From: Yuukianura sp. NJ FZ-2021
Taxonomy: Eukaryota
DNA length: 64,000 nucleotides
Direction of reading: 5' to 3'
Assembly (NCBI GenBank): GCA_046563655.1
Contig: CM102286.1
Location: 8,494,001 to 8,558,000, forward strand
In this document: in pieces, positions 2,588 through 45,254 of the stretch
How the letters are laid out: each line of letters begins with the position of its first letter
Position numbering within the stretch: position 1 is the stretch's first letter
The notes under the pieces: model-generated
Told to the model about the DNA's origin: nothing
What the model saw: only the letters and a program-made list of their open reading frames with translations
The model's database searches: none
Translations under genes and position numbers: made by a program

Positions 2588-2851
2588 CAATCAATCAATC
2601 AATCAATTTAGTTTATTTTCCCATTGAGAATAGGTTTTTCAAAATAAACGCCAGTGTTTATGAAAATATACTAACCTATGTGGAAATAAAGTATTAGGTA
2701 ATTGGTATTGTATTAGATTATATATTAGAGTTGGTATTATAAAAGTAAAATTTTTAGTATTATAAAAGTAAAATTGTTCTAAAATATTGTTCAAAGTGTG
2801 TTTATGTAAAAGATTTTTTTTAGCTTACAAATAATTTCTATTGTTGTTCGA

Positions 2852-5722
2852 TTAAATAAATTTCTTATTCTTTATAGGTTTGGATTGATTGTTTTGTACT
2901 TCGCATACTTGATTTGCTATAAAGTGTTTGTGGAGGGCGTTGCTAAATGACAGTCTGTTGTTGATTTGCACCAATTCCTTCTCTAAATTGTTCCATAGAC
3001 GGTGTGCAGATGCTTTAAACGAGTTCGGGTGAAGTGTGTTGTAATTCGAGTAAGCCTTATTTCTTGTGACTCGGGTAGTCTTCAATTCTGATTCGTCGAG
3101 GTAATTGATGAAATACGGCGGGCTTCTCAGTTTCTTGATGTCGTAAGTCAGCATGATTACATTGAATTTGTATGCTTGTGATGGGAATAACCAGTTGAGT
3201 TCATTGGTAATTCGTAATTTGACTTTGTTGAATTTTGACTCCATCAGCACAAATCTTCCTGCGCACCGTAAGACCTTCTCTGTCATCTTCAAAAATTGTT
3301 TTCTCGTACTTGCCCAGACTTCTGATAAGTACCTTAACTTTGACAAGACATATGATTGCATGAGAATATTTCTGTTCTTTGAGTTTAGCAGCCGTTGAAG
3401 TGGATATAATGACGCAATTATACTGAAGCATTTCTTTGTGGTTTTAGTGATGTGTTCATCCCACTGAAGCTTTCCGTCAATTGTCAAACCAAGGCTGACG
3501 ATAGAACGAGATGTCTTGATTTTCAGTTTTTGGAACGAAAATTCAATATCTTCAGCAGTTTTCATGATCGTTGGTTTTGCGATTATAAGGATTTCCGTTT
3601 TATCTGGGTGTAGCGTAAACATGTTCCTTGACATCCAATCGCTGATGAAATCCATACAACGTTCCACTTTTAGTCTGAATTCAGGAATGTTGTTCGGCTC
3701 TCCTTTTACCACCAGAGAATTGTCATCGGCAAACAGTGCTAGGAATTCATCAAATTTTTCGTGAAATTCTACAAGGAGGTCGTTGATCATCAAAGTAAAC
3801 AATGTTGGTGAGAGGATTCCTCCTTGTGGTGTGCCTAAGGTAGTTAATGCAATTTTTGACACTCCATTTCTAGTACTTGCAAATTGCCGCCGATTGCTGA
3901 GATAAGATTTAAACCACGGATGATCTATTCCGTACCATTTGAGTTTCTCCAGTAGAATTTCTCTGTCCACAGTATCAAATGCTTTTTTAAGATCGAGAAC
4001 TATAAGAGCGCTAATTTTGTTTTTGTGAAAGGAATCGTATAGGACATCAGTAAGGGCGATTTGAGCGTGCACTGTTGAATGACCCTCACGAAAACCGAAT
4101 TGATGTGGATGTAATATGTTGAACTTTTTTAAGTGAAGGCTTAATTGTCGGAACACACACCTCTCCATGATTTTTGACATGACAGGCAGAACAGATATGG
4201 GTCTATAGTCATTTGGCGACACAGGGTTTTTCACTTTCGCAACTGGTATAACTTTCGCAATTTTTAGACCCTCTGGAACTATTGATTCCATAAAGCTGGT
4301 ATTGATAATGTCGGTGATAGATTCTAAAAAGTTTGGAGCTCCTATACACAAGTCTATCATTTTAGCACAGATTCCTGTATAGTCTTCTGTCTTGGATTGA
4401 CGTTTCTTCATAACGTTCCAGCATTGACTAACTTCAAAAGTATTCACTTTCAAATTTAATGATTCAGGAACAGGGATATCCTTTGGTTTAGTAGGGAGTA
4501 AAGTAGCCTTCGATTTCGTGCTGATTTGCGTCAGATAATTGTTGATGGTGTCAGGATCCAATGCAAAATTATTTTCGTACGGTGAGTTCTTCCTGATGTT
4601 GCAGAATCTGTTGATTGCATCATGCACCCCCATCTTTTTGATCATCTCATTGAGCAATTCCCTAGTGTCCTTGTTGATTGCCCTTCTGATTTCCTTCTTT
4701 AGTCCTTTAAGTTCATGATCGGTTTCTGCCGACACTTGACGGTGTTTCTTGAGTTGTTTCTGTCTCACGAGAAGTTTTTTAGTGTCAGCTGATAAATGTC
4801 TTTTTAGTTTACGCTCTTTTAATACTTTAACGACGGTTGGGGCAAAAAAGTTGAAAATGTTGGTAACTGCAGTAGTGAAGTAATTCGTTTTCAATTCTGT
4901 GCTGGGTAAGGTCTGTGTATCAATTGACAGTATTGAATGGGCGAGGTTTTCATAGTCGATGTTTTTAAAATCTCGAAATGTAATACTTTTTCTCACTGGT
5001 TTTAACTTTGGAATTTGGATTTCAGATACTGTTGCTGCATGATCCGAGATATCTGTTTGGAGAACCACTGTCTTCGAAACGTTTGAGGGTCGATTTGTGA
5101 GAACGAGATCAAGGATTCTTTCTCCTCTAGTTGGCATGTCTACTAGTTGAACCGTGGAATGGGATTTCAAAACTCTATTAAGATGTTTCATTTCGGGTCC
5201 TTGATGTAAGTTAAAATCTCCGACATAGTAGCCAAACAGATTTTGTTGATTTATTTTGCACAAAATTTCTCTGAACACTTTACAGTCATTTTCAATAATC
5301 GATTTTATTTTTACAGGGGGGCGATAAAAACATCCAATCCAGAAACTTTTCCTGTGATTCCACTGAACTTTCACGCAAAGAAATTCCAATTGATGAGAGG
5401 CACTCGGTTTCGATTTGATAATGTTAGGCGATACTTGTATGTGTTCTCTGAGTAGAATGCAAATGCCACCGCCCGATCTTGAATCTCTGTCGTTTCTGAA
5501 CATTTTGAATCCTGGAATGACGACTTCTTTTCTGTCAGATTTTAACCAACTTTCACTAATACACAATATGTCCAAGTCATTTTCAATGATCAGTTGTCGT
5601 ATTTCTGTGAAGTGTTTGCAATATGACCTAGCGTTTTGATGTCCAATTTTAAGTAGTGATGTAGAATGTGTTGACGTCGAGAGCTTGAAAGTGTGATTTG
5701 TTTGACACTTTTGTTGTAATTG
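2852..5722 (-). CDS. LINE ORF2, AP endonuclease + reverse transcriptase, copy 1 (frame opens right after the TGA at 5723-5725; no AUG)
   Basis: APE motifs LKIGHQNARS, ISESW, FYRPP, GDFN, ILDL, SDH; RT motifs YRPIS, QFGFR, LDLKKAFDTV, PQGGILSP, FADD; no RNase H or CCHC finger visible. The frame is open 49 codons upstream of the track's TTG start at 5575. Confidence 0.93.
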   Translation of the reverse strand, partial: QLQQKCQTNHTFKLSTSTHSTSLLKIGHQNARSYCKHFTEIRQLIIENDLDILCISESWLKSDRKEVVIPGFKMFRNDRDSRSGGGICILLREHIQVSPNIIKSKPSASHQLEFLCVKVQWNHRKSFWIGCFYRPPVKIKSIIENDCKVFREILCKINQQNLFGYYVGDFNLHQGPEMKHLNRVLKSHSTVQLVDMPTRGERILDLVLTNRPSNVSKTVVLQTDISDHAATVSEIQIPKLKPVRKSITFRDFKNIDYENLAHSILSIDTQTLPSTELKTNYFTTAVTNIFNFFAPTVVKVLKERKLKRHLSADTKKLLVRQKQLKKHRQVSAETDHELKGLKKEIRRAINKDTRELLNEMIKKMGVHDAINRFCNIRKNSPYENNFALDPDTINNYLTQISTKSKATLLPTKPKDIPVPESLNLKVNTFEVSQCWNVMKKRQSKTEDYTGICAKMIDLCIGAPNFLESITDIINTSFMESIVPEGLKIAKVIPVAKVKNPVSPNDYRPISVLPVMSKIMERCVFRQLSLHLKKFNILHPHQFGFREGHSTVHAQIALTDVLYDSFHKNKISALIVLDLKKAFDTVDREILLEKLKWYGIDHPWFKSYLSNRRQFASTRNGVSKIALTTLGTPQGGILSPTLFTLMINDLLVEFHEKFDEFLALFADDNSLVVKGEPNNIPEFRLKVERCMDFISDWMSRNMFTLHPDKTEILIIAKPTIMKTAEDIEFSFQKLKIKTSRSIVSLGLTIDGKLQWDEHITKTTKKCFSIIASLYPLQRLLNSKNRNILMQSYVLSKLRYLSEVWASTRKQFLKMTEKVLRCAGRFVLMESKFNKVKLRITNELNWLFPSQAYKFNVIMLTYDIKKLRSPPYFINYLDESELKTTRVTRNKAYSNYNTLHPNSFKASAHRLWNNLEKELVQINNRLSFSNALHKHFIANQVCEVQNNQSKPIKNKKFI

Positions 5723-6510
5723 TCAATCGCGAGGGTGATTGTACTTCTACGAAATCCGACTCCTGCGTCCATGCGTTCTGGGGAAAATTGTCTGTTTTCC
5801 GGAAGTTGCCGTTCAATACTATCAGGAATTCGACGGTCGTGGTTTGACTGATTCTGAAGTATTTCTTTGTATTTTCTGGCTTTGCGTTGTCTCGTTACCA
5901 AGGGAAGATCTTCGTTCAAGTTGAGATCAGGATGAGTGAACTTGAAATGGGCTCTATTTTTCCAGACTATGTTTCTGACTTCCAGATTCTTGAAAGTAAT
6001 TTTGACCGGTTTATCTGGATAATTTCTTGTAGGTTTTCCCAGACGATAGGCTGTTTCAATAGTTGGTATTTTCAACGAAGGAACAGCTGCTACAAGAAGA
6101 TTCTGGATTGAGTGGGCAATTGATTCGTTGGTTTCATCAGGTTCCGTTGTAAGCCCGTGGAGAATGAGGTTAGTTTTGTGTAAATCAATCTGTATCCTTT
6201 CTAGTTCTTCGTCGTGTCGATACAGAGAGTTTCTTATTTCCAAATTATCGGTTTCGATGGTATGAATCTTCTTCTGCAGTCCAGTGACTTTCGAAGAGAG
6301 CGAATTGATTTGACTAGTGAGAGTGTCCTTCAGATCATCGACTTTTCCATTGAGATTATCTAGATTGGCATTTACTTTAGCGATCGCTGAAAGGATCGCT
6401 GTCGCTTCAGTGGCGGACGTCATTTTTACTGCTTTTGTAGATGAAGGAGCTTCGAACGCTGCTTTTCTTTTTCTGGTTCCAGTAGAAGGTTGGTTTTGGT
6501 CTGAGTTCAT
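5723..6510 (-). pseudogene. LINE ORF1, copy 1, with a 1-bp deletion just before its stop
   Basis: Matches copy 2 ORF1 except G3 instead of G4 at 5733-5735, which shifts the frame so it ends at 5590. Could be a homopolymer sequencing error. Confidence 0.7.
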
Positions 6511-6726
6511 CAATGTATCTCCGATTCGCAATCTAAAAGCATTTGAAAGGAAGTCAGCAGTTTTCTGTTCGTAAGCGCTACGCCGTAAAGGGATTAACAA
6601 GTTGACTTAACTTTTCAATGATATTTACGTGATCGTAGAGGAAGGGAGCAAAGACATGCAATAGCTATGCTACAATTCCTCTGTTGAAGGATAAGATGAG
6701 TATCCAAGCGAGACCAGATGAGTGCG

Positions 6727-6761
6727 ACGTCCTTCCTCCTCGAGCAACTGAACTGAACTGA
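6727..6761 (-). promoter_or_regulatory. Putative internal Pol II core promoter (Inr TCAGTT, A+1 at 6759; DPE GGACGT at +28..+33)
   Basis: Matches the Drosophila Inr (TCAKTY) and DPE (RGWYV at +28..+32) consensus and spacing, as in jockey-type LINE promoters. Confidence 0.6.
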
Positions 6762-6781
6762 ACTGAACTGAACTGAACTGA

Positions 6782-9700
6782 ATTTTTCGGAGAAAAAGTG
6801 AGTTTGGAACACTTCAGATGGGCTTTCAGAAGCATAATTTCGGTTTGCAATTTTGACTCCTCAGATAGCCCAGAATGACCTTTTGAAGAGTATTTAATGA
6901 AAAAAATGATTTTTTGGTGAAAAATTGAGTCTGGAACACTTCAGATGGGCTTTCACAAGCATAATTTCGGTTTGCAATTTTGACTCCTCAGATAGCCCAG
7001 AATGACTTTTTGGTGAGTTATAAATGAAAAAGAATGGATTTTTCGGAGAAAAATTTAGCTTGGAACACTTCAGATTGGCTTTCACAAGCATAATTTCGGT
7101 TTGCAATTTTGACTCCTCAGATAGCCCAGAATGACTTTTTGGTGAGTTATAAATGAAAAAGAATGGATTTTTCGGAGAAAAATTTAGCTTGGAACACTTC
7201 AGATGGGCTTTCAGAAGCATAATTTCGGTTTGCAATTTTGACTCCTCAGATAGCCCAGAATGACTTTTTGGTGAGTTATAAATGAAAAAGAATGGATTTT
7301 TCGGAGAAAAAGTGAGTTTGGAACACTTCAGATGGGCTTTCAGAAGCATAATTTCGGTTTGCAATTTTGACTCCTCAGATAGCCCAGAATGACCTTTTGA
7401 AGAGTATTTAATGAAAAAAATGGATTTTTTGGTGAAAAATTGAGTCTGGAACACTTCAGATGGGCTTTCACAAGCATAATTTCGGTTTGCAATTTTGACT
7501 CCTCAGATAGCCCAGAATGACTTTTTGGTGAGTTATAAATGAAAAAGAATGGATTTTTCGGAGAAAAATTTAGCTTGGAACACTTCAGATTGGCTTTCAC
7601 AAGCATTATTTCGGTTTGCAATTTTGACTCCTCAGATAGCCCAGAATGACTTTTTGGTGAGTTATAAATGAAAAAGAATGGATTTTTCGGAGAAAAATTT
7701 AGCTTGGAACACTTCAGATGGGCTTTCAGAAGCATAATTTCGGTTTGCAATTTTGACTCCTCAGATAGCCCAGAATGACTTTTTGGTGAGTTATAAATGA
7801 AAAAGAATGGATTTTTCGGAGAAAAAGTGAGTTTGGAACACTTCAGATGGGCTTTCAGAAGCATAATTTCGGTTTGCAATTTTGACTCCTCAGATAGCCC
7901 AGAATGACCTTTTGAAGAGTATTTAATGAAAAAAATGATTTTTTGGTGAAAAATTGAGTCTGGAACACTTCAGATGGGCTTTCACAAGCATAATTTCGGT
8001 TTGCAATTTTGACTCCTCAGATAGCCCAGAATGACTTTTTGGTGAGTTTTAAATGAAAAAAATGGATTTTTCGGAGAAAAATTGAGCTTGGAACACTTCA
8101 GATGGGCTTTCACAAGCATAATTTCGGTTTGCAATTTTGACTCCTCAGATAGCCCAGAATGACTTTTTGGTGAGTTTTAAATGAAAAAAATGGATTTTTC
8201 GGAGAAAAAGTGAGTTTGGAACACTTCAGATGGGCTTTCAGAAGCATAATTTCGGTTTGCAATTTTGACTCCTCAGATAGCCCAGAATGACCTTTTGAAG
8301 AGTATTTAATGAAAAAAAAATGATTTTTTGGTGAAAAATTGAGTCTGGAACACTTCAGATGGGCTTTCACAAGCATAATTTCGGTTTGCAATTTTGACTC
8401 CTCAGATAGCCCAGAATGACTTTTTGGTGAGTTTTAAATGAAAAAAATGGATTTTTCGGAGAAAAATTGAGCTTGGAACACTTCAGATGGGCTTTCACAA
8501 GCATAATTTCGGTTTGCAATTTTGACTCCTCAGATAGCCCAGAATGACTTTTTGGTGAGTTTTAAATGAAAAAAATGGATTTTTCGGAGAAAAATTGAGC
8601 TTGGAACACTTCAGATGGGCTTTCACAAGCATAATTTCGGTTTGCAATTTTGACTCCTCAGATAGCCCAGAATGACTTTTTGGTGAGTTATAAATGAAAA
8701 GGAATGGATTTTTCGGAGAAAAATTTAGCTTGGAACACTTCAGATTGGCTTTCACAAGCATAATTTCGGTTTGCAATTTTGACTCCTCAGATAGCCCAGA
8801 ATGACTTTTTGGTGAGTTATAAATGAAAAAGAATGGATTTTTCGGAGAAAAATTTAGCTTGGAACACTTCAGATGGGCTTTCAGAAGCATAATTTCGGTT
8901 TGCAATTTTGACTCCTCAGATAGCCCAGAATGACCTTTTGGTGAGTTTTAAATTAAAAAAATGGATTTTTCGGAGAAAAAGTGAGTTTGGAACACTTCAG
9001 ATGGGCTTTCACAAGCATAATTTCGGTTTGCAATTTTGACTCCTCAGATAGCCCAGAATGACTTTTTGGTGAGTTATAAATGAAAAAGAATGGATTTTTC
9101 GGAGAAAAATTTAGCTTGGAACACTTCAGATGGGCTTTCAGAAGCATAATTTCGGTTTGCAATTTTGACTCCTCAGATAGCCCAGAATGACTTTTTGGTG
9201 AGTTATAAATGAAAAAGAATGGATTTTTCGGAGAAAAAGTGAGTTTGGAACACTTCAGATGGGCTTTCAGAAGCATAATTTCGGTTTGCAATTTTGACTC
9301 CTCAGATAGCCCAGAATGACCTTTTGAAGAGTATTTAATGAAAAAAATGATTTTTTGGTGAAAAATTGAGTCTGGAACACTTCAGATGGGCTTTCACAAG
9401 CATAATTTCGGTTTGCAATTTTGACTCCTCAGATAGCCCAGAATGACTTTTTGGTGAGTTATAAATGAAAAAGAATGGATTTTTCGGAGAAAAATTTAGC
9501 TTGGAACACTTCAGATTGGCTTTCACAAGCATAATTTCGGTTTGCAATTTTGACTCCTCAGATAGCCCAGAATGACTTTTTGGTGAGTTATAAATGAAAA
9601 AGAATGGATTTTTCGGAGAAAAATTTAGCTTGGAACACTTCAGATGGGCTTTCAGAAGCATAATTTCGGTTTGCAATTTTGACTCCTCAGATAGCCCAGA

Positions 9701-21700: not shown

Positions 21701-22097
21701 GAATGGATTTTTCGGAGAAAAATTTAGCTTGGAACACTTCAGATTGGCTTTCACAAGCATAATTTCGGTTTGCAATTTTGACTCCTCAGATAGCCCAGAA
21801 TGACTTTTTGGTGAGTTTTAAATGAAAAAAATGGATTTTTCGAAGAAAAATTGAGCTTGGAACACTTCAGATGGGCTTTCACAAGCATAATTTCGGTTTG
21901 CAATTTTGACTCCTCAGATAGCCCAGAATGACTTTTTGGTGAGTTATAAATGAAAAAGAATGGATTTTTCGGAGAAAAATTTAGCTTGGAACACTTCAGA
22001 TGGGCTTTCAGAAGCATAATTTCGGTTTGCAATTTTGACTCCTCAGATAGCCCAGAATGACTTTTTGGTGAGTTATAAATGAAAAAGAATGGATTTT
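6782..22097. repeat. 129-bp tandem satellite, block 2
   Basis: Same monomer family with recurring diagnostic variants. Confidence 0.98.
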
Positions 22098-22361
22098 CAA
22101 TCAATCAATCAATCAATTTAGTTTATTTTCCCATTGAGAATAGGTTTTTCAAAATAAACGCCAGTGTTTATGAAAATATACTAACCTATGTGGAAATAAA
22201 GTATTAGGTAATTGGTATTGTATTAGATTATATATTAGAGTTGGTATTATAAAAGTAAAATTTTTAGTATTATAAAAGTAAAATTGTTCTAAAATATTGT
22301 TCAAAGTGTGTTTATGTAAAAGATTTTTTTTAGCTTACAAATAATTTCTATTGTTGTTCGA

Positions 22362-25232
22362 TTAAATAAATTTCTTATTCTTTATAGGTTTGGATTGATT
22401 GTTTTGTACTTCGCATACTTGATTTGCTATAAAGTGTTTGTGGAGGGCGTTGCTAAATGACAGTCTGTTGTTGATTTGCACCAATTCCTTCTCTAAATTG
22501 TTCCATAGACGGTGTGCAGATGCTTTAAACGAGTTCGGGTGAAGTGTGTTGTAATTCGAGTAAGCCTTATTTCTTGTGACTCGGGTAGTCTTCAATTCTG
22601 ATTCGTCGAGGTAATTGATGAAATACGGCGGGCTTCTCAGTTTCTTGATGTCGTAAGTCAGCATGATTACATTGAATTTGTATGCTTGTGATGGGAATAA
22701 CCAGTTGAGTTCATTGGTAATTCGTAATTTGACTTTGTTGAATTTTGACTCCATCAGCACAAATCTTCCTGCGCACCGTAAGACCTTCTCTGTCATCTTC
22801 AAAAATTGTTTTCTCGTACTTGCCCAGACTTCTGATAAGTACCTTAACTTTGACAAGACATATGATTGCATGAGAATATTTCTGTTCTTTGAGTTTAGCA
22901 GCCGTTGAAGTGGATATAATGACGCAATTATACTGAAGCATTTCTTTGTGGTTTTAGTGATGTGTTCATCCCACTGAAGCTTTCCGTCAATTGTCAAACC
23001 AAGGCTGACGATAGAACGAGATGTCTTGATTTTCAGTTTTTGGAACGAAAATTCAATATCTTCAGCAGTTTTCATGATCGTTGGTTTTGCGATTATAAGG
23101 ATTTCCGTTTTATCTGGGTGTAGCGTAAACATGTTCCTTGACATCCAATCGCTGATGAAATCCATACAACGTTCCACTTTTAGTCTGAATTCAGGAATGT
23201 TGTTCGGCTCTCCTTTTACCACCAGAGAATTGTCATCGGCAAACAGTGCTAGGAATTCATCAAATTTTTCGTGAAATTCTACAAGGAGGTCGTTGATCAT
23301 CAAAGTAAACAATGTTGGTGAGAGGATTCCTCCTTGTGGTGTGCCTAAGGTAGTTAATGCAATTTTTGACACTCCATTTCTAGTACTTGCAAATTGCCGC
23401 CGATTGCTGAGATAAGATTTAAACCACGGATGATCTATTCCGTACCATTTGAGTTTCTCCAGTAGAATTTCTCTGTCCACAGTATCAAATGCTTTTTTAA
23501 GATCGAGAACTATAAGAGCGCTAATTTTGTTTTTGTGAAAGGAATCGTATAGGACATCAGTAAGGGCGATTTGAGCGTGCACTGTTGAATGACCCTCACG
23601 AAAACCGAATTGATGTGGATGTAATATGTTGAACTTTTTTAAGTGAAGGCTTAATTGTCGGAACACACACCTCTCCATGATTTTTGACATGACAGGCAGA
23701 ACAGATATGGGTCTATAGTCATTTGGCGACACAGGGTTTTTCACTTTCGCAACTGGTATAACTTTCGCAATTTTTAGACCCTCTGGAACTATTGATTCCA
23801 TAAAGCTGGTATTGATAATGTCGGTGATAGATTCTAAAAAGTTTGGAGCTCCTATACACAAGTCTATCATTTTAGCACAGATTCCTGTATAGTCTTCTGT
23901 CTTGGATTGACGTTTCTTCATAACGTTCCAGCATTGACTAACTTCAAAAGTATTCACTTTCAAATTTAATGATTCAGGAACAGGGATATCCTTTGGTTTA
24001 GTAGGGAGTAAAGTAGCCTTCGATTTCGTGCTGATTTGCGTCAGATAATTGTTGATGGTGTCAGGATCCAATGCAAAATTATTTTCGTACGGTGAGTTCT
24101 TCCTGATGTTGCAGAATCTGTTGATTGCATCATGCACCCCCATCTTTTTGATCATCTCATTGAGCAATTCCCTAGTGTCCTTGTTGATTGCCCTTCTGAT
24201 TTCCTTCTTTAGTCCTTTAAGTTCATGATCGGTTTCTGCCGACACTTGACGGTGTTTCTTGAGTTGTTTCTGTCTCACGAGAAGTTTTTTAGTGTCAGCT
24301 GATAAATGTCTTTTTAGTTTACGCTCTTTTAATACTTTAACGACGGTTGGGGCAAAAAAGTTGAAAATGTTGGTAACTGCAGTAGTGAAGTAATTCGTTT
24401 TCAATTCTGTGCTGGGTAAGGTCTGTGTATCAATTGACAGTATTGAATGGGCGAGGTTTTCATAGTCGATGTTTTTAAAATCTCGAAATGTAATACTTTT
24501 TCTCACTGGTTTTAACTTTGGAATTTGGATTTCAGATACTGTTGCTGCATGATCCGAGATATCTGTTTGGAGAACCACTGTCTTCGAAACGTTTGAGGGT
24601 CGATTTGTGAGAACGAGATCAAGGATTCTTTCTCCTCTAGTTGGCATGTCTACTAGTTGAACCGTGGAATGGGATTTCAAAACTCTATTAAGATGTTTCA
24701 TTTCGGGTCCTTGATGTAAGTTAAAATCTCCGACATAGTAGCCAAACAGATTTTGTTGATTTATTTTGCACAAAATTTCTCTGAACACTTTACAGTCATT
24801 TTCAATAATCGATTTTATTTTTACAGGGGGGCGATAAAAACATCCAATCCAGAAACTTTTCCTGTGATTCCACTGAACTTTCACGCAAAGAAATTCCAAT
24901 TGATGAGAGGCACTCGGTTTCGATTTGATAATGTTAGGCGATACTTGTATGTGTTCTCTGAGTAGAATGCAAATGCCACCGCCCGATCTTGAATCTCTGT
25001 CGTTTCTGAACATTTTGAATCCTGGAATGACGACTTCTTTTCTGTCAGATTTTAACCAACTTTCACTAATACACAATATGTCCAAGTCATTTTCAATGAT
25101 CAGTTGTCGTATTTCTGTGAAGTGTTTGCAATATGACCTAGCGTTTTGATGTCCAATTTTAAGTAGTGATGTAGAATGTGTTGACGTCGAGAGCTTGAAA
25201 GTGTGATTTGTTTGACACTTTTGTTGTAATTG
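22362..25232 (-). CDS. LINE ORF2 (APE + RT), copy 2, in frame with ORF1 across a single TGA
   Basis: Protein identical to copy 1 ORF2; open from 25232 to the stop at 22362. Confidence 0.93.
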   Translation of the reverse strand, partial: QLQQKCQTNHTFKLSTSTHSTSLLKIGHQNARSYCKHFTEIRQLIIENDLDILCISESWLKSDRKEVVIPGFKMFRNDRDSRSGGGICILLREHIQVSPNIIKSKPSASHQLEFLCVKVQWNHRKSFWIGCFYRPPVKIKSIIENDCKVFREILCKINQQNLFGYYVGDFNLHQGPEMKHLNRVLKSHSTVQLVDMPTRGERILDLVLTNRPSNVSKTVVLQTDISDHAATVSEIQIPKLKPVRKSITFRDFKNIDYENLAHSILSIDTQTLPSTELKTNYFTTAVTNIFNFFAPTVVKVLKERKLKRHLSADTKKLLVRQKQLKKHRQVSAETDHELKGLKKEIRRAINKDTRELLNEMIKKMGVHDAINRFCNIRKNSPYENNFALDPDTINNYLTQISTKSKATLLPTKPKDIPVPESLNLKVNTFEVSQCWNVMKKRQSKTEDYTGICAKMIDLCIGAPNFLESITDIINTSFMESIVPEGLKIAKVIPVAKVKNPVSPNDYRPISVLPVMSKIMERCVFRQLSLHLKKFNILHPHQFGFREGHSTVHAQIALTDVLYDSFHKNKISALIVLDLKKAFDTVDREILLEKLKWYGIDHPWFKSYLSNRRQFASTRNGVSKIALTTLGTPQGGILSPTLFTLMINDLLVEFHEKFDEFLALFADDNSLVVKGEPNNIPEFRLKVERCMDFISDWMSRNMFTLHPDKTEILIIAKPTIMKTAEDIEFSFQKLKIKTSRSIVSLGLTIDGKLQWDEHITKTTKKCFSIIASLYPLQRLLNSKNRNILMQSYVLSKLRYLSEVWASTRKQFLKMTEKVLRCAGRFVLMESKFNKVKLRITNELNWLFPSQAYKFNVIMLTYDIKKLRSPPYFINYLDESELKTTRVTRNKAYSNYNTLHPNSFKASAHRLWNNLEKELVQINNRLSFSNALHKHFIANQVCEVQNNQSKPIKNKKFI

Positions 25233-26021
25233 TCAATCGCGAGGGGTGATTGTACTTCTACGAAATCCGACTCCTGCGTCCATGCGTTCTGGGGAAAATT
25301 GTCTGTTTTCCGGAAGTTGCCGTTCAATACTATCAGGAATTCGACGGTCGTGGTTTGACTGATTCTGAAGTATTTCTTTGTATTTTCTGGCTTTGCGTTG
25401 TCTCGTTACCAAGGGAAGATCTTCGTTCAAGTTGAGATCAGGATGAGTGAACTTGAAATGGGCTCTATTTTTCCAGACTATGTTTCTGACTTCCAGATTC
25501 TTGAAAGTAATTTTGACCGGTTTATCTGGATAATTTCTTGTAGGTTTTCCCAGACGATAGGCTGTTTCAATAGTTGGTATTTTCAACGAAGGAACAGCTG
25601 CTACAAGAAGATTCTGGATTGAGTGGGCAATTGATTCGTTGGTTTCATCAGGTTCCGTTGTAAGCCCGTGGAGAATGAGGTTAGTTTTGTGTAAATCAAT
25701 CTGTATCCTTTCTAGTTCTTCGTCGTGTCGATACAGAGAGTTTCTTATTTCCAAATTATCGGTTTCGATGGTATGAATCTTCTTCTGCAGTCCAGTGACT
25801 TTCGAAGAGAGCGAATTGATTTGACTAGTGAGAGTGTCCTTCAGATCATCGACTTTTCCATTGAGATTATCTAGATTGGCATTTACTTTAGCGATCGCTG
25901 AAAGGATCGCTGTCGCTTCAGTGGCGGACGTCATTTTTACTGCTTTTGTAGATGAAGGAGCTTCGAACGCTGCTTTTCTTTTTCTGGTTCCAGTAGAAGG
26001 TTGGTTTTGGTCTGAGTTCAT
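25233..26021 (-). CDS. LINE ORF1, 262 aa (coiled coil + L1-type RRM-like), copy 2
   Basis: First ATG at 26021 (MNSDQNQ...), basic patch RKRK, heptad region, then NLILHGL...AYRLGK...PVKITF...LNEDLP pattern typical of RRM-type LINE ORF1; ends TITPRD-TGA. Confidence 0.85.
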   Translation of the reverse strand: MNSDQNQPSTGTRKRKAAFEAPSSTKAVKMTSATEATAILSAIAKVNANLDNLNGKVDDLKDTLTSQINSLSSKVTGLQKKIHTIETDNLEIRNSLYRHDEELERIQIDLHKTNLILHGLTTEPDETNESIAHSIQNLLVAAVPSLKIPTIETAYRLGKPTRNYPDKPVKITFKNLEVRNIVWKNRAHFKFTHPDLNLNEDLPLVTRQRKARKYKEILQNQSNHDRRIPDSIERQLPENRQFSPERMDAGVGFRRSTITPRD

Positions 26022-26292
26022 CAATGTATCTCCGATTCGCAATCTAAAAGCATTTGAAAGGAAGTCAGCAGTTTTCTGTTCGTAAGCGCTACGCCGTAAA
26101 GGGATTAACAAGTTGACTTAACTTTTCAATGATATTTACGTGATCGTAGAGGAAGGGAGCAAAGACATGCAATAGCTATGCTACAATTCCTCTGTTGAAG
26201 GATAAGATGAGTATCCAAGCGAGACCAGATGAGTGCGACGTCCTTCCTCCTCGAGCAACTGAACTGAACTGAACTGAACTGAACTGAACTGA

Positions 26293-28518
26293 ATTTTTCG
26301 GAGAAAAAGTGAGTTTGGAACACTTCAGATGGGCTTTCAGAAGCATAATTTCGGTTTGCAATTTTGACTCCTCAGATAGCCCAGAATGACCTTTTGAAGA
26401 GTATTTAATGAAAAAAATGATTTTTTGGTGAAAAATTGAGTCTGGAACACTTCAGATGGGCTTTCACAAGCATAATTTCGGTTTGCAATTTTGACTCCTC
26501 AGATAGCCCAGAATGACTTTTTGGTGAGTTATAAATGAAAAAGAATGGATTTTTCGGAGAAAAATTTAGCTTGGAACACTTCAGATTGGCTTTCACAAGC
26601 ATAATTTCGGTTTGCAATTTTGACTCCTCAGATAGCCCAGAATGACTTTTTGGTGAGTTATAAATGAAAAAGAATGGATTTTTCGGAGAAAAATTTAGCT
26701 TGGAACACTTCAGATGGGCTTTCAGAAGCATAATTTCGGTTTGCAATTTTGACTCCTCAGATAGCCAGAATGACTTTTTGGTGAGTTATAAATGAAAAAG
26801 AATGGATTTTTCGGAGAAAAAGTGAGTTTGGAACACTTCAGATGGGCTTTCAGAAGCATAATTTCGGTTTGCAGTTTTGACTCCTCAGATAGCCCAGAAT
26901 GACCTTTTGAAGAGTATTTAATGAAAAAAATGATTTTTTGGTGAAAAATTGAGTCTGGAACACTTCAGATGGGCTTTCACAAGCATAATTTCGGTTTGCA
27001 ATTTTGACTCCTCAGATAGCCCAGAATGACTTTTTGGTGAGTTATAAATGAAAAAGAATGGATTTTTCGGAGAAAAATTTAGCTTGGAACACTTCAGATT
27101 GGCTTTCACAAGCATTATTTCGGTTTGCAATTTTGACTCCTCAGATAGCCCAGAATGACTTTTTGGTGAGTTATAAATGAAAAAGAATGGATTTTTCGGA
27201 GAAAAATTTAGCTTGGAACACTTCAGATGGGCTTTCAGAAGCATAATTTCGGTTTGCAATTTTGACTCCTCAGATAGCCAGAATGACTTTTTGGTGAGTT
27301 ATAAATGAAAAAGAATGGATTTTTCGGAGAAAAAGTGAGTTTGGAACACTTCAGATGGGCTTTCAGAAGCATAATTTCGGTTTGCAGTTTTGACTCCTCA
27401 GATAGCCCAGAATGACCTTTTGAAGAGTATTTAATGAAAAAAATGATTTTTTGGTGAAAAATTGAGTCTGGAACACTTCAGATGGGCTTTCACAAGCATA
27501 ATTTCGGTTTGCAATTTTGACTCCTCAGATAGCCCAGAATGACTTTTTGGTGAGTTTTAAATGAAAAAAATGGATTTTTCGGAGAAAAATTGAGCTTGGA
27601 ACACTTCAGATGGGCTTTCACAAGCATAATTTCGGTTTGCAATTTTGACTCCTCAGATAGCCCAGAATGACTTTTTGGTGAGTTTTAAATGAAAAAAATG
27701 GATTTTTCGGAGAAAAAGTGAGTTTGGAACACTTCAGATGGGCTTTCAGAAGCATAATTTCGGTTTGCAATTTTGACTCCTCAGATAGCCCAGAATGACC
27801 TTTTGAAGAGTATTTAATGAAAAAAATGATTTTTTGGTGAAAAATTGAGTCTGGAACACTTCAGATGGGCTTTCACAAGCATAATTTCGGTTTGCAACTT
27901 TGACTCCTCAGATAGCCCAGAATGACTTTTTGGTGAGTTTTAAATGAAAAAAATGGATTTTTCGGAGAAAAATTGAGCTTGGAACACTTCATATGGGCTT
28001 TCACAAGCATAATTTCGGTTTGCAATTTTGACTCCTCAGATAGCCCAGAATGACTTTTTGGTGAGTTTTAAATGAAAAAAATGGATTTTTCGGAGAAAAA
28101 TTGAGCTTGGAACACTTCAGATGGGCTTTCACAAGCATAATTTCGGTTTGCAATTTTGACTCCTCAGATAGCCCAGAATGACTTTTTGGTGAGTTATAAA
28201 TGAAAAGGAATGGATTTTTCGGAGAAAAATTTAGCTTGGAACACTTCAGATTGGCTTTCACAAGCATTTTTTCGGTTTGCAATTTTGACTCCTCAGATAG
28301 CCCAGAATGACTTTTTGGTGAGTTATAAATGAAAAAGAATGGATTTTTCGGAGAAAAATTTAGCTTGGAACACTTCAGATGGGCTTTCAGAAGCATAATT
28401 TCGGTTTGCAATTTTGACTCCTCAGATAGCCCAGAATGACCTTTTGGTGAGTTTTAAATGAAAAAAAATGGATTTTTCGGAGAAAAAGTGAGTTTGGAAC
28501 ACTCCAGATGGGCTTTCA
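26293..28518. repeat. 129-bp tandem satellite, block 3
   Basis: Same monomer family. Confidence 0.98.
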
Positions 28519-28755: not shown

Positions 28756-31626
28756 CTAAATAAATTTCTTATTCTTTATTGATTTGGATTGATTGTTTTG
28801 TACTTCGCATACTTGATTTGCTATAAAGTGTTTGTGGAGGGCGTTGCTGAATGACAGTTTGTTGTTGATTTGAACCAATTCCTTCTCTAAATCGTTCCAT
28901 AGACGGTGTGCAGATGCTTTAAACGAGTTCGGGTGAAATGTGTTGTAATTCGTGTAAGCCTTATTTCTTGTGATTCGGGTAGTCTTCAATTCTGATTCAT
29001 CGAGGTAATTGATAAAATACGGCGGGCTTCTCAGTTTTTTGATGTCGTAAGTCAGCATGATTACATTGAATTTGTACGCTTGTGATGGGAATAACCAGTT
29101 GAGTTCATTGGTAATTCGCAATTTGACTTTGTTGAATTTTGACTCCATCAGCACAAATCTTCCTGCGCACCGTAAGACCTTCTCTGTCATCTTCAAAAAT
29201 TGTTTTCTCGTACTTGCCCAGACTTCTGATAAGTACCTTAACTTTGACAAGACATATGATTGCATGAGAATATTTCTGTTCTTTGAGTTTAGCAGCCGTT
29301 GAAGTGGATATAATGACGCAATTATACTGAAGCATTTCTTTGTGGTTTTAGTGATGTGTTCATCCCACCGCAGCCTTCCGTCAATTGTCAAACCAAGGCT
29401 GACGATAGAACGAGATGTCTTGATTTGCAGTTTTTGGAACGAAAATTCAATATCTTCAGCAGTTTTCATGATCGTTGGTTTTGCGATTATAAGGATCTCC
29501 GTTTTATCTGGATGTAGGGTAAACATGTTCCTTGACATCCAATCGCTGATGAAATCCAAACAACGTTCCACTTTTTGTCTGAATTCAGGAATGTTGTTCG
29601 GGTCTCCCTTTACCACTAGAGAATTGTCATCGGCAAACAGTGCTAGGAATTCATCAAATGTTTTGTGAAATTCTACAAGGAGGTCGTTGATCATCAAAGT
29701 AAACAATGTGGGTGAAAGGATTCCTCCTTGTGGTGTGCCTAAGGTAGTTAATCCAATTTTTGACACTCCATTTCTAGTACTTGCAAATTGCCGTCGATTG
29801 CTGAGATAAGATTTAAACCACGGATGATCTATTCCGTACCATTTGAGTTTTTCCAGTAGAATTTCTCTGTCCACAGTATCAAATGCTTTTTTAAGATCGA
29901 GAACTATAAGAGCGCTAATTTTGTTTTTGTGAAAGGAATCGTATAGGACATCAGTAAGGGCGATTTGAGCGTGCACTGTTGAATGGCCCTCACGAAAACC
30001 GAATTGATGTGGATGTAATATGTTGAACTTTTTTAAGTGAAGGCTTAATTGTCGGAACACACACCTCTCCATGATTTTTGAAATGACAGGCAGAACAGAT
30101 ATGGGTCTATAGTCATTTGGCGACACAGGGTTTTTCACTTTCGCAAGTGGTATAACTTTCGCAATTTTTAGACTCTCTGGAACTGTTGATTCCATAAAGC
30201 TGGTACTGATAATGTCGGTGATAGATTCTAAAAAGTTTGGAGCTCCTATACACAAGTCTATCATTTTAGCACAGATTCCTGTATAGTCTTCTGTCTTGGA
30301 TTGACGTTTCTTCATAAGGTTCCAGCATTGTATCACTTCAAAAGTATTCACTTTCAAATTTAATGACTCGGGAACAGGGATATCCTTTGGTTTAGTAGGG
30401 AGTAAAGTAGCCTTCGATTTCGTGCTGATTTGCGTCAGATAGTTGTTGATGGTGTCAGGATCCAATGCAGAAATATTTTCGCAAGGTGAGTTCTTCCTGA
30501 TGTTGCAGAATCTGTTGATTGCCTCATGCACCCCCATCTTTTTGATCATCTCATTGAGCAATTCCCTCGTGTCGTTGTTGATTGCCCTTCTGATTTCCTT
30601 CTTTAGTCCTTTAAGTTCATGATCGGTTTCTGCCGATACTTGACGGTGTTTCTTGAGTTGTCTCTGTGTTACGAGAAGTTTTTTAGTGTCAGCTGACAAT
30701 TGTCTTTTTAGTTTACGCTCTTTTAATACTTTAACGACGGTTGGGGCAAAAAAATTGAAGATGTCGATAACTGCAGAGGTAAAGTAATTCGTTTTCAATT
30801 CTGTGCTGGGTAAGTTCTGTGTATCAATTGACAGTATTGAATGGGCGAGGTTTTCAAAGTCGATGTTTTTAAAATCTCGAAATATAATACTTTTTCTCAC
30901 TGGTTTTAACTTTGGAATTTGGATTTCAGATACTGTTGCTGCATGATCCGAGATATCTGTTTGGAGAACCACTGTCTTCGAAACGTTTGAGGGTCGATTT
31001 GTGAGAACGAGATCAAGGATTCTTTCTCCTCTAGTTGGCATGTCTATTAGTTGAGTGGTGGAATGTGATTTCAAAACTCTATTAAGATGTTTCATTTCGG
31101 GTCCTTGATGCAAGTTAAAATCTCCGACGTAGTAGCCAAACAGATTTTGTTGATTTATTTTGCACAAAATTTCTCCGAACATTTTACAGTCATTTTCAAT
31201 AATCGATTTTATTTTTACAGGGGGGCGATAAAAACATCCAATCCAGAAGCTTTTCCTGTGATTCCACTGAACTTTCACACAAAGAAATTCCAATTGATGA
31301 GAGGCACTCGATTGCGATTTCATAATGTTAGGCGATACTTGTATGTGTTCTCTGAGTAGAATGCAAACGCCACCGCCCGATTTTGAATCTCTGTCGTTTC
31401 TGAACATTTTGAATCCTGGAATGACGACCTCTTTTCTGTCAGATTTTAACCAACTCTCACTAATACACAATATGTCCAAGTCATTTTCAATGATCAGTTG
31501 TCGTATTTCTGTGAAGTGTTTGCAATATGACCTAGCGTTTTGATGTCCAATTTTAAGTAGTGATGAAGAATGTGTTGACGTCGAAAGCTTGAAAGTGTGA
31601 TTTGTTTGACACTTTTGTTGTAATTG
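28756..31626 (-). CDS. LINE ORF2 (APE + RT), copy 3
   Basis: Intact; roughly 45 amino-acid differences from copies 1/2 counted by eye; catalytic motifs unchanged. Confidence 0.93.
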   Translation of the reverse strand, partial: QLQQKCQTNHTFKLSTSTHSSSLLKIGHQNARSYCKHFTEIRQLIIENDLDILCISESWLKSDRKEVVIPGFKMFRNDRDSKSGGGVCILLREHIQVSPNIMKSQSSASHQLEFLCVKVQWNHRKSFWIGCFYRPPVKIKSIIENDCKMFGEILCKINQQNLFGYYVGDFNLHQGPEMKHLNRVLKSHSTTQLIDMPTRGERILDLVLTNRPSNVSKTVVLQTDISDHAATVSEIQIPKLKPVRKSIIFRDFKNIDFENLAHSILSIDTQNLPSTELKTNYFTSAVIDIFNFFAPTVVKVLKERKLKRQLSADTKKLLVTQRQLKKHRQVSAETDHELKGLKKEIRRAINNDTRELLNEMIKKMGVHEAINRFCNIRKNSPCENISALDPDTINNYLTQISTKSKATLLPTKPKDIPVPESLNLKVNTFEVIQCWNLMKKRQSKTEDYTGICAKMIDLCIGAPNFLESITDIISTSFMESTVPESLKIAKVIPLAKVKNPVSPNDYRPISVLPVISKIMERCVFRQLSLHLKKFNILHPHQFGFREGHSTVHAQIALTDVLYDSFHKNKISALIVLDLKKAFDTVDREILLEKLKWYGIDHPWFKSYLSNRRQFASTRNGVSKIGLTTLGTPQGGILSPTLFTLMINDLLVEFHKTFDEFLALFADDNSLVVKGDPNNIPEFRQKVERCLDFISDWMSRNMFTLHPDKTEILIIAKPTIMKTAEDIEFSFQKLQIKTSRSIVSLGLTIDGRLRWDEHITKTTKKCFSIIASLYPLQRLLNSKNRNILMQSYVLSKLRYLSEVWASTRKQFLKMTEKVLRCAGRFVLMESKFNKVKLRITNELNWLFPSQAYKFNVIMLTYDIKKLRSPPYFINYLDESELKTTRITRNKAYTNYNTFHPNSFKASAHRLWNDLEKELVQINNKLSFSNALHKHFIANQVCEVQNNQSKSIKNKKFI

Positions 31627-32415
31627 TCAATCGCGAGGGGTGATTGTACTTCTACGAAATCCGACTCCTGCGTCCATGCGTTCTGGGGAAAATTGTCTGT
31701 TTTCCGGAAGTTGCCGTTCAACACTATCAGGAATTCGACGGTCGTGGTTTGACTGATTCTGAAGTATTTCTTTGTATTTTCTGGCTTTGCGTTGTCTCGT
31801 TACCAAAGGAAGATCTTCGTTCAAGCTGAGATCTGGATGAGTGAACTTGAAATGGGCTCTATTTTTCCAGACTATGTTTCTGACTTCCAGATTCTTGAAA
31901 GTAATTTTGACCGGTTTATCTGGATAATTTCTTGTAGGTTTTCCCAGACGATATGCTGCTTCAATAGTTGGTATTTTCAACGAAGGAACAGCTGCTATAA
32001 GAAGATTCTGGATTGAGTGGGCAATTGATTCGTGGGTTTCGTCAGTTTCCGTTGGAAGCCCGTGGAGAATGAGGTTAGTTTTGTGTAAATCAATCTGAAT
32101 CCTTTCTAGTTCTTCGTCGTGTCGATACAAAGAGTTTCTTATTTCCAAATTATCGGTTTCGATGGTATGAATCTTCTTCTGCAGTCCAGTGACTTTCGAA
32201 GAGAGCGAATTGATTTGGCTAGTGAGAGTGTCCTTCAGATCATCGACTTTTCCATTGAGATTATCTAGATTGGCATTTACTTTAGCGATCGCTGAAAGGA
32301 TCGCTGTCGCTTCAGTGGCGGACGTCATTTTTACTGCTTTTGTATATGAAGGAGCTTCGAACGCTGCTTTTCTTTTTCTGGTTCCAGTAGAAGGTTGGTT
32401 TTGGTCTGAGTTCAT
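31627..32415 (-). CDS. LINE ORF1, 262 aa, copy 3
   Basis: Collinear with copy 2 ORF1; ends TITPRD-TGA-CAA-TTA. Confidence 0.85.
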   Translation of the reverse strand: MNSDQNQPSTGTRKRKAAFEAPSYTKAVKMTSATEATAILSAIAKVNANLDNLNGKVDDLKDTLTSQINSLSSKVTGLQKKIHTIETDNLEIRNSLYRHDEELERIQIDLHKTNLILHGLPTETDETHESIAHSIQNLLIAAVPSLKIPTIEAAYRLGKPTRNYPDKPVKITFKNLEVRNIVWKNRAHFKFTHPDLSLNEDLPLVTRQRKARKYKEILQNQSNHDRRIPDSVERQLPENRQFSPERMDAGVGFRRSTITPRD

Positions 32416-45154: not shown

Positions 45155-45254
45155 NNNNNNNNNNNNNNNNNNNNNNNNNNNNNNNNNNNNNNNNNNNNNN
45201 NNNNNNNNNNNNNNNNNNNNNNNNNNNNNNNNNNNNNNNNNNNNNNNNNNNNNN
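45155..45254. other. Assembly gap (100 N)
   Basis: Run of exactly 100 N, a conventional placeholder for a gap of unknown size. Confidence 0.99.

Follow-up and report, generated by a model that had tools for sequence, protein, structure and literature searches.

The element and its junction

The window studied here is a stretch of 64,000 nucleotides (nt) of contig CM102286.1 (positions 8,494,001 to 8,558,000), and it holds three minus-strand copies of an element that lacks long terminal repeats (LTRs) and has a short target duplication and an (ATTG)n tail. The element is a long interspersed nuclear element (LINE, a non-LTR retrotransposon) of the type that encodes an apurinic/apyrimidinic endonuclease (APE). 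It carries two open reading frames, ORF1 and ORF2. In the copy that we describe first, copy 2, these lie in one reading frame with a single TGA between them, and we argue below that the element probably makes an ORF1-ORF2 fusion protein by programmed readthrough of this UGA. The features of copy 2 are as follows:

22098..26293, minus strand: LINE copy 2, full length (4196 nt), with 5' untranslated region, ORF1, TGA, ORF2 and 3' untranslated region; it sits within a 129-bp satellite
26293..26259, minus strand: 5' end of copy 2, (TTCAG)n
25236..26021, minus strand: ORF1, 262 amino acids (aa) from the first ATG at 26021, with a coiled coil and an L1-ORF1p-like RRM region; C-terminus TPRD
25233..25235, minus strand: TGA, the sole stop between ORF1 and ORF2 and in frame with both; proposed readthrough site
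25227..25232, minus strand: CAA TTA hexamer immediately 3' of the TGA, fitting CARYYA; its first base is the +4 C
22365..25232, minus strand: ORF2 frame, 956 codons, open from the first codon past the TGA; TAA stop at 22364..22362
24549..25163, minus strand: AP-endonuclease domain, ORF2 residues ~24-228, N30 and E57 included (Pfam PF03372 plus invariant columns)
25011..25013, minus strand: first in-frame ATG of the ORF2 frame, codon 74 (PGFKM)
22998..23735, minus strand: reverse transcriptase domain, ORF2 residues 500-745 (Pfam PF00078 RVT_1, E 9e-36)
22117..22098, minus strand: 3' tail of copy 2, (ATTG)n

Read along the minus strand from 25262 to 25200, the junction is ...ATC ACC CCT CGC GAT TGA CAA TTA CAA CAA AAG TGT.... 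Under the standard code the stop-to-stop frame of ORF1 (26117..25236) continues in the same frame as 25232..22365, and the product of reading through the stop would be 1219 residues long. The initial annotation of this DNA had described just this arrangement, ORF1-TGA-CAA-TTA-ORF2 in one frame with the first in-frame AUG only after the APE motifs, and both statements hold when the minus strand and its stop-to-stop frames are read directly.

ORF1 has the architecture of an L1-type ORF1p, a coiled coil followed by an RRM-like domain, also labelled 'type II'. The coiled-coil-type Pfam matches in ORF1 fall below their cut-offs; a profile built from ORF1 and 12 relatives matches human LINE-1 ORF1p (2ykp/2yko, E 2.5e-5) over profile positions 63-202, after the coiled-coil region. 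In ORF2, Pfam PF03372 (Exo_endo_phos) covers residues 34-228 with an E-value of 1.6e-5, above its cut-off. In an alignment with 15 relatives the endonuclease residue N30 is nearly invariant and E57 is invariant, and both are invariant among the six closer relatives. These two residues lie upstream of the first in-frame ATG of ORF2, and a protein started at that AUG would therefore have a dead endonuclease.

Other known routes to ORF2 leave no mark at this junction. A stop/start overlap of the SART1 type (UAAUG or AUGA) is not found at GAT TGA CAA, and reading the translation of the element by eye gives no 2A-type DxExNPGP motif. A -1 frameshift heptamer is not applicable to the window element, because its ORF1 and ORF2 share a frame. 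Separately, a remnant of a slippery site was considered, with GFRRS in the ORF1 frame of the window element aligning where the -1 frame of relatives has FFR; this is suggestive only and was dropped.

Copies of the element and selection on its two frames

The other two copies in the window are:

2588..6782, minus strand: LINE copy 1, a duplicate of copy 2 plus flanks; TGA at 5725..5723
28517..~32661, minus strand: LINE copy 3, with ORF1 at 32415..31630, TGA at 31629..31627 and ORF2 at 31626..28759

Copy 1 is identical to copy 2 across 4400 nt, satellite flanks included (2491-6889 versus 22001-26400), except for one C missing at 5735/5736 from the CCCC that lies 8-11 nt ahead of the TGA. This deletion, either a genuine mutation or a sequence error at a homopolymer, puts the ORF1 of copy 1 out of frame with the TGA and ORF2, so that it ends some 45 codons past the TGA in another frame. 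As the identity of the flanks shows, copies 1 and 2 are one insertion duplicated 19.5 kb apart, either by a recent segmental duplication in the array or by the assembly. Copy 3 is an independent insertion, since its insertion point in the satellite monomer and its target duplication are both different (AAAG, as against AAAAT for copies 1 and 2, read off the aligned flanks). These relations change the weight of an earlier argument. The initial annotation had taken TGA-CAATTA in all three copies (5717-5725, 25227-25235 and 31621-31629), a diverged copy 3 among them, as support from conservation. The nine bases are indeed present three times, yet the in-frame layout is lost in copy 1, and the appeal to conservation does not stand: copy 1 is a duplicate of copy 2, and copy 3 is just 2.9% diverged.

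What the comparison of copies 2 and 3 does reveal is selection. They differ at 108 of 3756 coding positions (2.9%), and across 1219 codons neither has acquired another stop or an indel. The ratio of non-synonymous to synonymous divergence (dN/dS) is 0.287 for ORF1 and 0.296 for ORF2, as compared with 0.91 and 1.20 in shifted control frames, and both ORFs were therefore under purifying selection while the two copies diverged. Within the 73 codons from the stop to the first ATG, we count three synonymous changes and one non-synonymous change.

Could the stop then simply be a defect, a nonsense mutation in an ancestral single ORF1-ORF2 frame whose copies are dead? The disabling 1-nt deletion of copy 1 fits this account, as does the confinement of all window copies to one satellite array. 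The independence of copies 2 and 3, the purifying selection on both of their ORFs and their otherwise intact 1219 codons speak against it. Contigs from three sequencing runs of the likely source organism, compared over 24700-25800, also leave the junction unchanged and have the TGA form only. We consider this account scarcely credible, and the relatives described next add to the case against it.

In the same organism, a minority contig covering 25436-25735 has 11 ORF1 substitutions, all of them in common with the contig of a second organism whose sequence is ~96% alike. One LINE subfamily is therefore present in both organisms.

Relatives in protein databases

We searched protein databases with the readthrough translation, its TGA written as X, and obtained 155 relatives at E<=1e-5. 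All are of the LINE ORF2 type, at <=36% identity; none of the 155 covers ORF1, and query coverage is <=75%. Nine of them were inspected and all nine begin with a Met upstream of the endonuclease. ORF1 alone has 305 relatives at E<=0.001. Among the best 150 of these, all shorter than 850 aa, there is no continuous ORF1-endonuclease protein, which counts further against the stop being a lesion in a once continuous frame. P0122, at 36% identity the nearest relative of ORF1, is encoded on a JGI contig of 4587 nt and was not picked up by the pattern scan described below.

The six longest of the best 150 ORF1 relatives (533-843 aa) were scanned with Pfam. Five of them (P0212, P0214, P0222, P0239 and P0270) have a C-terminal NADAR domain (E 1e-19 to 1e-30), which is unexpected for a LINE ORF1, and the sixth has coiled-coil matches only.

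Junctions of related elements

When JGI metagenome contigs were scanned with the ORF1 alignment, 70 matches to the pattern came up, of which 12 loci were confirmed; the same scan of viral contigs gave 20 pattern matches and no confirmed locus. At nine of the 12 loci a relative of ORF2 is also encoded (tblastn), with up to 34% identity over 905 aa (L006). The junctions read as follows:

L002: ORF2 in the ORF1 frame, opening right after a single TGA (TGA CTC GTT); no ATG before the endonuclease Asn
L007: ORF2 in the ORF1 frame, opening right after a single TGA (TGA CTA GCG); no ATG before the endonuclease Asn
L004: TGA CTA AGT, then LSDMKPDTLKLSHQN in frame, which resembles the first endonuclease motif by eye; no tblastn match to ORF2
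L001, L003, L005, L008, L009, L011: ORF2 overlaps the end of ORF1 in the -1 frame, with an in-phase T_TTT_TTA inside the overlap; no ATG before the Asn except in L001
L012: decayed; in-phase T_TTT_TTA at the end of ORF1
L006: ORF2 in the +1 frame, with an ATG 12 codons ahead of the endonuclease alignment
L010: ORF1 ends in TAG TAG, with no ORF2 in the remaining 330 nt; uninformative
Heptamer positions: L001:1836, L003:1226, L005:1614, L008:1541, L009:1329, L011:1221, L012:1271

The 12 loci thus comprise three with an in-frame TGA-C, seven with an in-phase heptamer (six of them with ORF2 in the -1 frame), one with a +1 ORF2 that has an ATG, and one uninformative locus. Seven of the nine loci with ORF2 have no ATG ahead of the active-site Asn of the endonuclease. 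A stop thus stands at the ORF1/ORF2 junction in deeply diverged relatives too, a further point against its being a defect of the window copies.

The heptamer is present in phase at every one of the six loci whose ORF2 is in the -1 frame and also in L012. At three of the six the -1 frame opens exactly at the heptamer, and GG follows it directly in L001, L003, L005, L008 and L009. From this placement, the heptamer loci look like LINEs that use programmed -1 frameshifting. For some insect and plant LINEs, too, ORF1 and ORF2 have been noted to overlap with a -1 shift. With in-phase heptamers in its sister loci, a recoded ORF1-ORF2 fusion looks like the rule of the group.

Phylogeny of the two frames

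The ORF1 tree has 16 rows, namely the window element, 11 of the loci and four database proteins; L012, with its broken ORF1, was not included. One side of the tree (group A) contains the window element, P0122, L002, L004, L007, L010 and P0125, and the other (group B) contains all of the -1 elements together with L006; the split between the two has support of 96/94. Every group-A member with a readable junction, four out of four, has the in-frame UGA-C arrangement. As the end branches of this tree are long, ~0.7-1.8 changes per site, the in-frame UGA-C junction was retained across deep divergence. A tree of the N-terminal 420 aa of ORF2 joins L002 and L007 at 100/100 and resolves its deep nodes poorly. 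Should the in-frame layout have had two origins, this would mean convergence on one solution.

Stop context

The consensus CARYYA derives from tobacco mosaic virus (TMV), and the window stop is of this type I kind, TGA CAA TTA, in copies 1, 2 and 3. How much does the match say? The 21-mer around the stop occurs three times in the window, where 100 shuffles give an expectation of 0. TGACARYYA is unremarkable window-wide, with five occurrences and 5.15 expected; at one fixed stop, given a TGA, the chance of CARYYA is ~0.2% by our own arithmetic from base composition. Published work, in its passages on stop context, names UGA as the leakiest stop and C as the leakiest +4 base, has CAAUUA 3' of the stop raising readthrough in yeast, gives Trp, Cys or Arg as the residues decoded at UGA, and puts readthrough of UGA-CUAG in human cells at 7-31% (PMC4615788).

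The initial annotation had proposed that frame and stop-CARYYA be compared across relatives. The in-frame UGA-C recurs, in L002, L004 and L007, and with the window element makes four of four in-frame junctions with UGA followed by C; the hexamer does not recur, and the other loci whose ORF2 frame can be read are -1 or +1. As read from these four junctions, the conserved determinant is UGA and then C, not CARYYA, and the CARYYA match may add to leakiness in the window LINE family.

That the stop is UGA in all four in-frame junctions, never UAA or UAG, would also suit a stop that is eliminated or recoded in the RNA, or recoded by means of a dedicated tRNA, since A-to-I editing to UGG and selenocysteine insertion act on UGA or on the A of the stop; a small in-frame splice belongs to the same family of explanations. 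Plain readthrough predicts UGA-C equally well. No Rfam family, SECIS elements included, matches 21900-26500 on either strand at E<=1, and there is no notable structure, double-stranded or otherwise, around the stop (z -0.8 to +0.3 in 90-nt windows spanning the TGA). A spliced RNA, moreover, would not pass the stop on to new copies, and two independent insertions have it. We regard this class of explanation as very improbable.

Readthrough weighed against an independent start of ORF2

The main support for readthrough comes from the 12 metagenome loci, beside the layout and the selection. Were ORF2 started independently, we would predict a free reading frame between the two ORFs, spacers and stops accumulating between them, and an initiator ahead of the endonuclease. 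We see the opposite: either no spacing at all, one common frame and the leakiest stop context, or a textbook slippery heptamer in phase. Each device would yield an ORF1-ORF2 fusion at a low, fixed rate, and we therefore rate readthrough the most likely explanation. What we read directly from the data is the layout, the purifying selection that has acted on the two ORFs, and a recoding layout in relatives that is either the same or equivalent; these support the suggestion of the initial annotation that abundant ORF1p and a minor ORF1-endonuclease-reverse transcriptase fusion would be made from one RNA. From them we infer readthrough and its rate, with the fusion as the active product.

In the proposed mechanism, translation of the mRNA would start at the AUG of ORF1 and most ribosomes would terminate at the UGA, releasing the 262-aa ORF1p with its L1-ORF1p-like coiled coil and RRM. 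In a minority of cases the UGA, in the leaky context of a +4 C and CAA UUA, would be read by a near-cognate tRNA, and the ribosome would continue in the same frame through endonuclease and reverse transcriptase to give the 1219-aa fusion. The outcome would be a low, fixed ratio of ORF2 to ORF1, with ORF2 physically tied to ORF1 as Gag-Pol is to Gag.

The chief alternative is that ribosomes reinitiate after termination, or initiate internally at a non-AUG codon just past the stop, giving a free ORF2p and making the common frame incidental. The UGGGA-type motif is the reinitiation signal of the calicivirus type, and no such 18S-complementary motif is seen in the 60 nt upstream of the stop, by eye and with no formal search. 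The reported LINE cases are of termination-reinitiation or stop/start coupling, in the portions of the literature that concern us here (PMC5972666, PMC2881922, PMC3894237). In-frame near-cognate codons do exist past the stop of the window element: codon 16 is ACG, and codon 26 is an AUU that has A at -3 and G at +4. A start at this AUU, however, would remove part of the endonuclease's first strand. Among the relatives, the ORF1 stop of L001 overlaps an ATG of the ORF2 frame (AUGA, L001:1903-1909, 70 nt downstream of the heptamer), so that reinitiation is possible in L001, while its close relative L003 has no ATG; and L004 has an ATG four codons past its stop. On the other side, reinitiation needs no set frame, yet in the window element's ORF1 clade all four junctions keep the frame, lack a spacer and have UGA-C, and the sister elements bear an in-phase slippery heptamer that would lead to a fusion. 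We judge this alternative unlikely, though it deserves to be taken seriously.

A number of observations weigh against readthrough, the two start codons just described among them. L004 is decayed from 24 codons past its stop, and L006 combines a +1 ORF2 with an ATG. The hexamer fits CARYYA in none of the three in-frame relatives (0/3) and is thus not conserved. At 2.9% divergence the chance that a 9-mer stays unchanged is ~0.77 (our own arithmetic), so the window alone is uninformative on conservation of the stop context, and the contigs of the second organism leave 25153-25356, junction included, uncovered. All but one of the 12 loci are on contigs with the prefix of a single metagenome data set, and few host species may therefore be represented. 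In the ORF2 tree no well-supported group that holds at most half of the rows includes the window element, so that a single origin of the in-frame layout is neither confirmed nor rejected.

Structure adds to this side of the balance. There is no stable predicted structure 3' of the stop of the window element (minimum free energy of -4.2 to -11.7 kcal/mol for 60-150 nt, z -1.4 to +0.95; the folding does not model pseudoknots), nor after the stops of L002, L004 and L007 (z -1.6 to +0.7), and across the relatives nothing significant lies past stops or heptamers (z -2.3 to +1.0). Any stimulation would therefore rest on linear context alone, and a downstream stimulator like that of murine leukemia virus is not supported by these folding models. 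As general background, translation of ORF2 in L1 is independent of its AUG. Finally, human L1 and SART1 produce ORF2 without a fusion, as their respective accounts describe (PMC5972666, PMC2881922). The statement of the initial annotation that characterised LINEs use other routes, reinitiation in L1 and UAAUG in SART1, agrees with what these accounts relate.

Taking both layouts together, we incline slightly to a wider proposal, that a whole animal LINE lineage with an L1-like ORF1p would never start ORF2 independently and would express it only as a recoded fusion, having switched between the two classic retroviral devices, with -1 frameshifting at U_UUU_UUA in one branch and UGA-C readthrough in the other, to which the window element belongs.

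Surroundings of the element

The 129-bp satellite forms one long array over window positions 1-45154, which carries all three LINE copies and terminates at a gap of 100 N (45155-45254). At least two independent insertions of this one LINE family lie <=6 kb apart in the array, at A-rich sites of the monomer. In our reading the element is recently active. Next to the array, on the minus strand of window 48000-62100, are exons of a ryanodine-receptor gene (Pfam RIH, RyR, RR_TM4-6, EF-hand), from which it follows that the host is an animal. A variant genetic code was considered for the TGA and dropped, given the animal host and the single TGA among the 1219 codons of the element; reassignment of UGA in the nuclear code is not expected in animals. 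As to the LINE group, membership of CR1/L2, as supposed in the initial annotation, is putative, and what bears on it are hints: the tail of copy 2 is a microsatellite, one ORF2 relative bears the NCBI name 'jockey-like', and human L1 ORF2p is not among the PDB matches of the element at E<=0.001.

Relation to known recoding systems

How LINE ORF2 is translated from a bicistronic RNA is a long-standing question. The nearest parallel to the window element is the gag-pol of Moloney murine leukemia virus (MuLV), where, according to the sections on this virus in a review, structural and enzymatic frames are aligned, separated by a single stop, and readthrough gives a minor fusion (PMC5009743). The two differ in that MuLV has UAG and a downstream pseudoknot, whereas the window element has UGA and no significant predicted structure. 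The window element, furthermore, belongs to the non-LTR retrotransposons; it encodes an APE endonuclease and, in place of Gag, an L1-like ORF1p. With TMV it has the identical six bases past the stop, CAA UUA; the stop itself is UAG in TMV and UGA here, and the three in-frame relatives have other hexamers. HIV-1 uses U UUU UUA for its -1 frameshift, and the same heptamer stands in phase in the sister loci L001, L003, L005, L008, L009, L011 and L012; by contrast the window element is in frame, and the relatives are without strong predicted downstream structure (z -2.3 to +1.0).

Metazoan genes with UGA-C or UGA-CUAG readthrough, as far as they are treated in PMC4615788, resemble the four in-frame junctions in having UGA and a +4 C, with UGA CUA G in L007 and UGA CUA A in L004. 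Those host genes gain short C-terminal extensions, whereas here a whole 956-aa enzyme would be appended, and the window element has CAA rather than CUA. Like L1, SART1 and the single-ORF LINEs with 2A peptides, in the parts of PMC3894237, PMC5972666 and PMC2881922 that describe them, the element would make little ORF2p from a bicistronic RNA, with ORF2 dependent on translation of ORF1. It differs in that ORF2 follows without a spacer and has neither an overlapping AUG nor any AUG ahead of its catalytic residues, and the product would be a fusion in place of a free ORF2p.

The only routes to LINE ORF2 named in the reviews, in the passages on these elements, are reinitiation, UAAUG coupling, IRES-like ideas (internal ribosome entry), 2A peptides and a frameshift inside HeT-A gag (PMC3894237, PMC5009743, PMC5972666, PMC2881922). 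The 2016 recoding review names only the frameshift within HeT-A gag in those passages, and calls TART polyprotein expression unknown (PMC5009743). PMC4120745 and PMC13343379 make no mention of a frameshift, stop codon, overlap or in-frame arrangement. Our full-text literature search returned no description of stop readthrough or slippery-site frameshifting for a LINE ORF2, older notes on single elements being possible. Readthrough and frameshifting are themselves known; what is new is probably retrovirus-style recoding in a non-LTR retrotransposon.

There is a practical side to this for annotators, since an ORF2 without a start codon will be truncated or missed by ORF callers that require an ATG. 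If ORF2 in this LINE group is indeed expressed as a fusion by readthrough or frameshifting, its short natural recoding cassettes would be open to direct reporter testing, and the logic of Gag-Pol would reach non-LTR elements. The element would then have a built-in setting of the ORF1:ORF2 ratio and a means of loading ORF2 onto its own ribonucleoprotein particle, and because the coiled coil could let the fusion assemble together with free ORF1p, cis-preference would have a simple physical basis.

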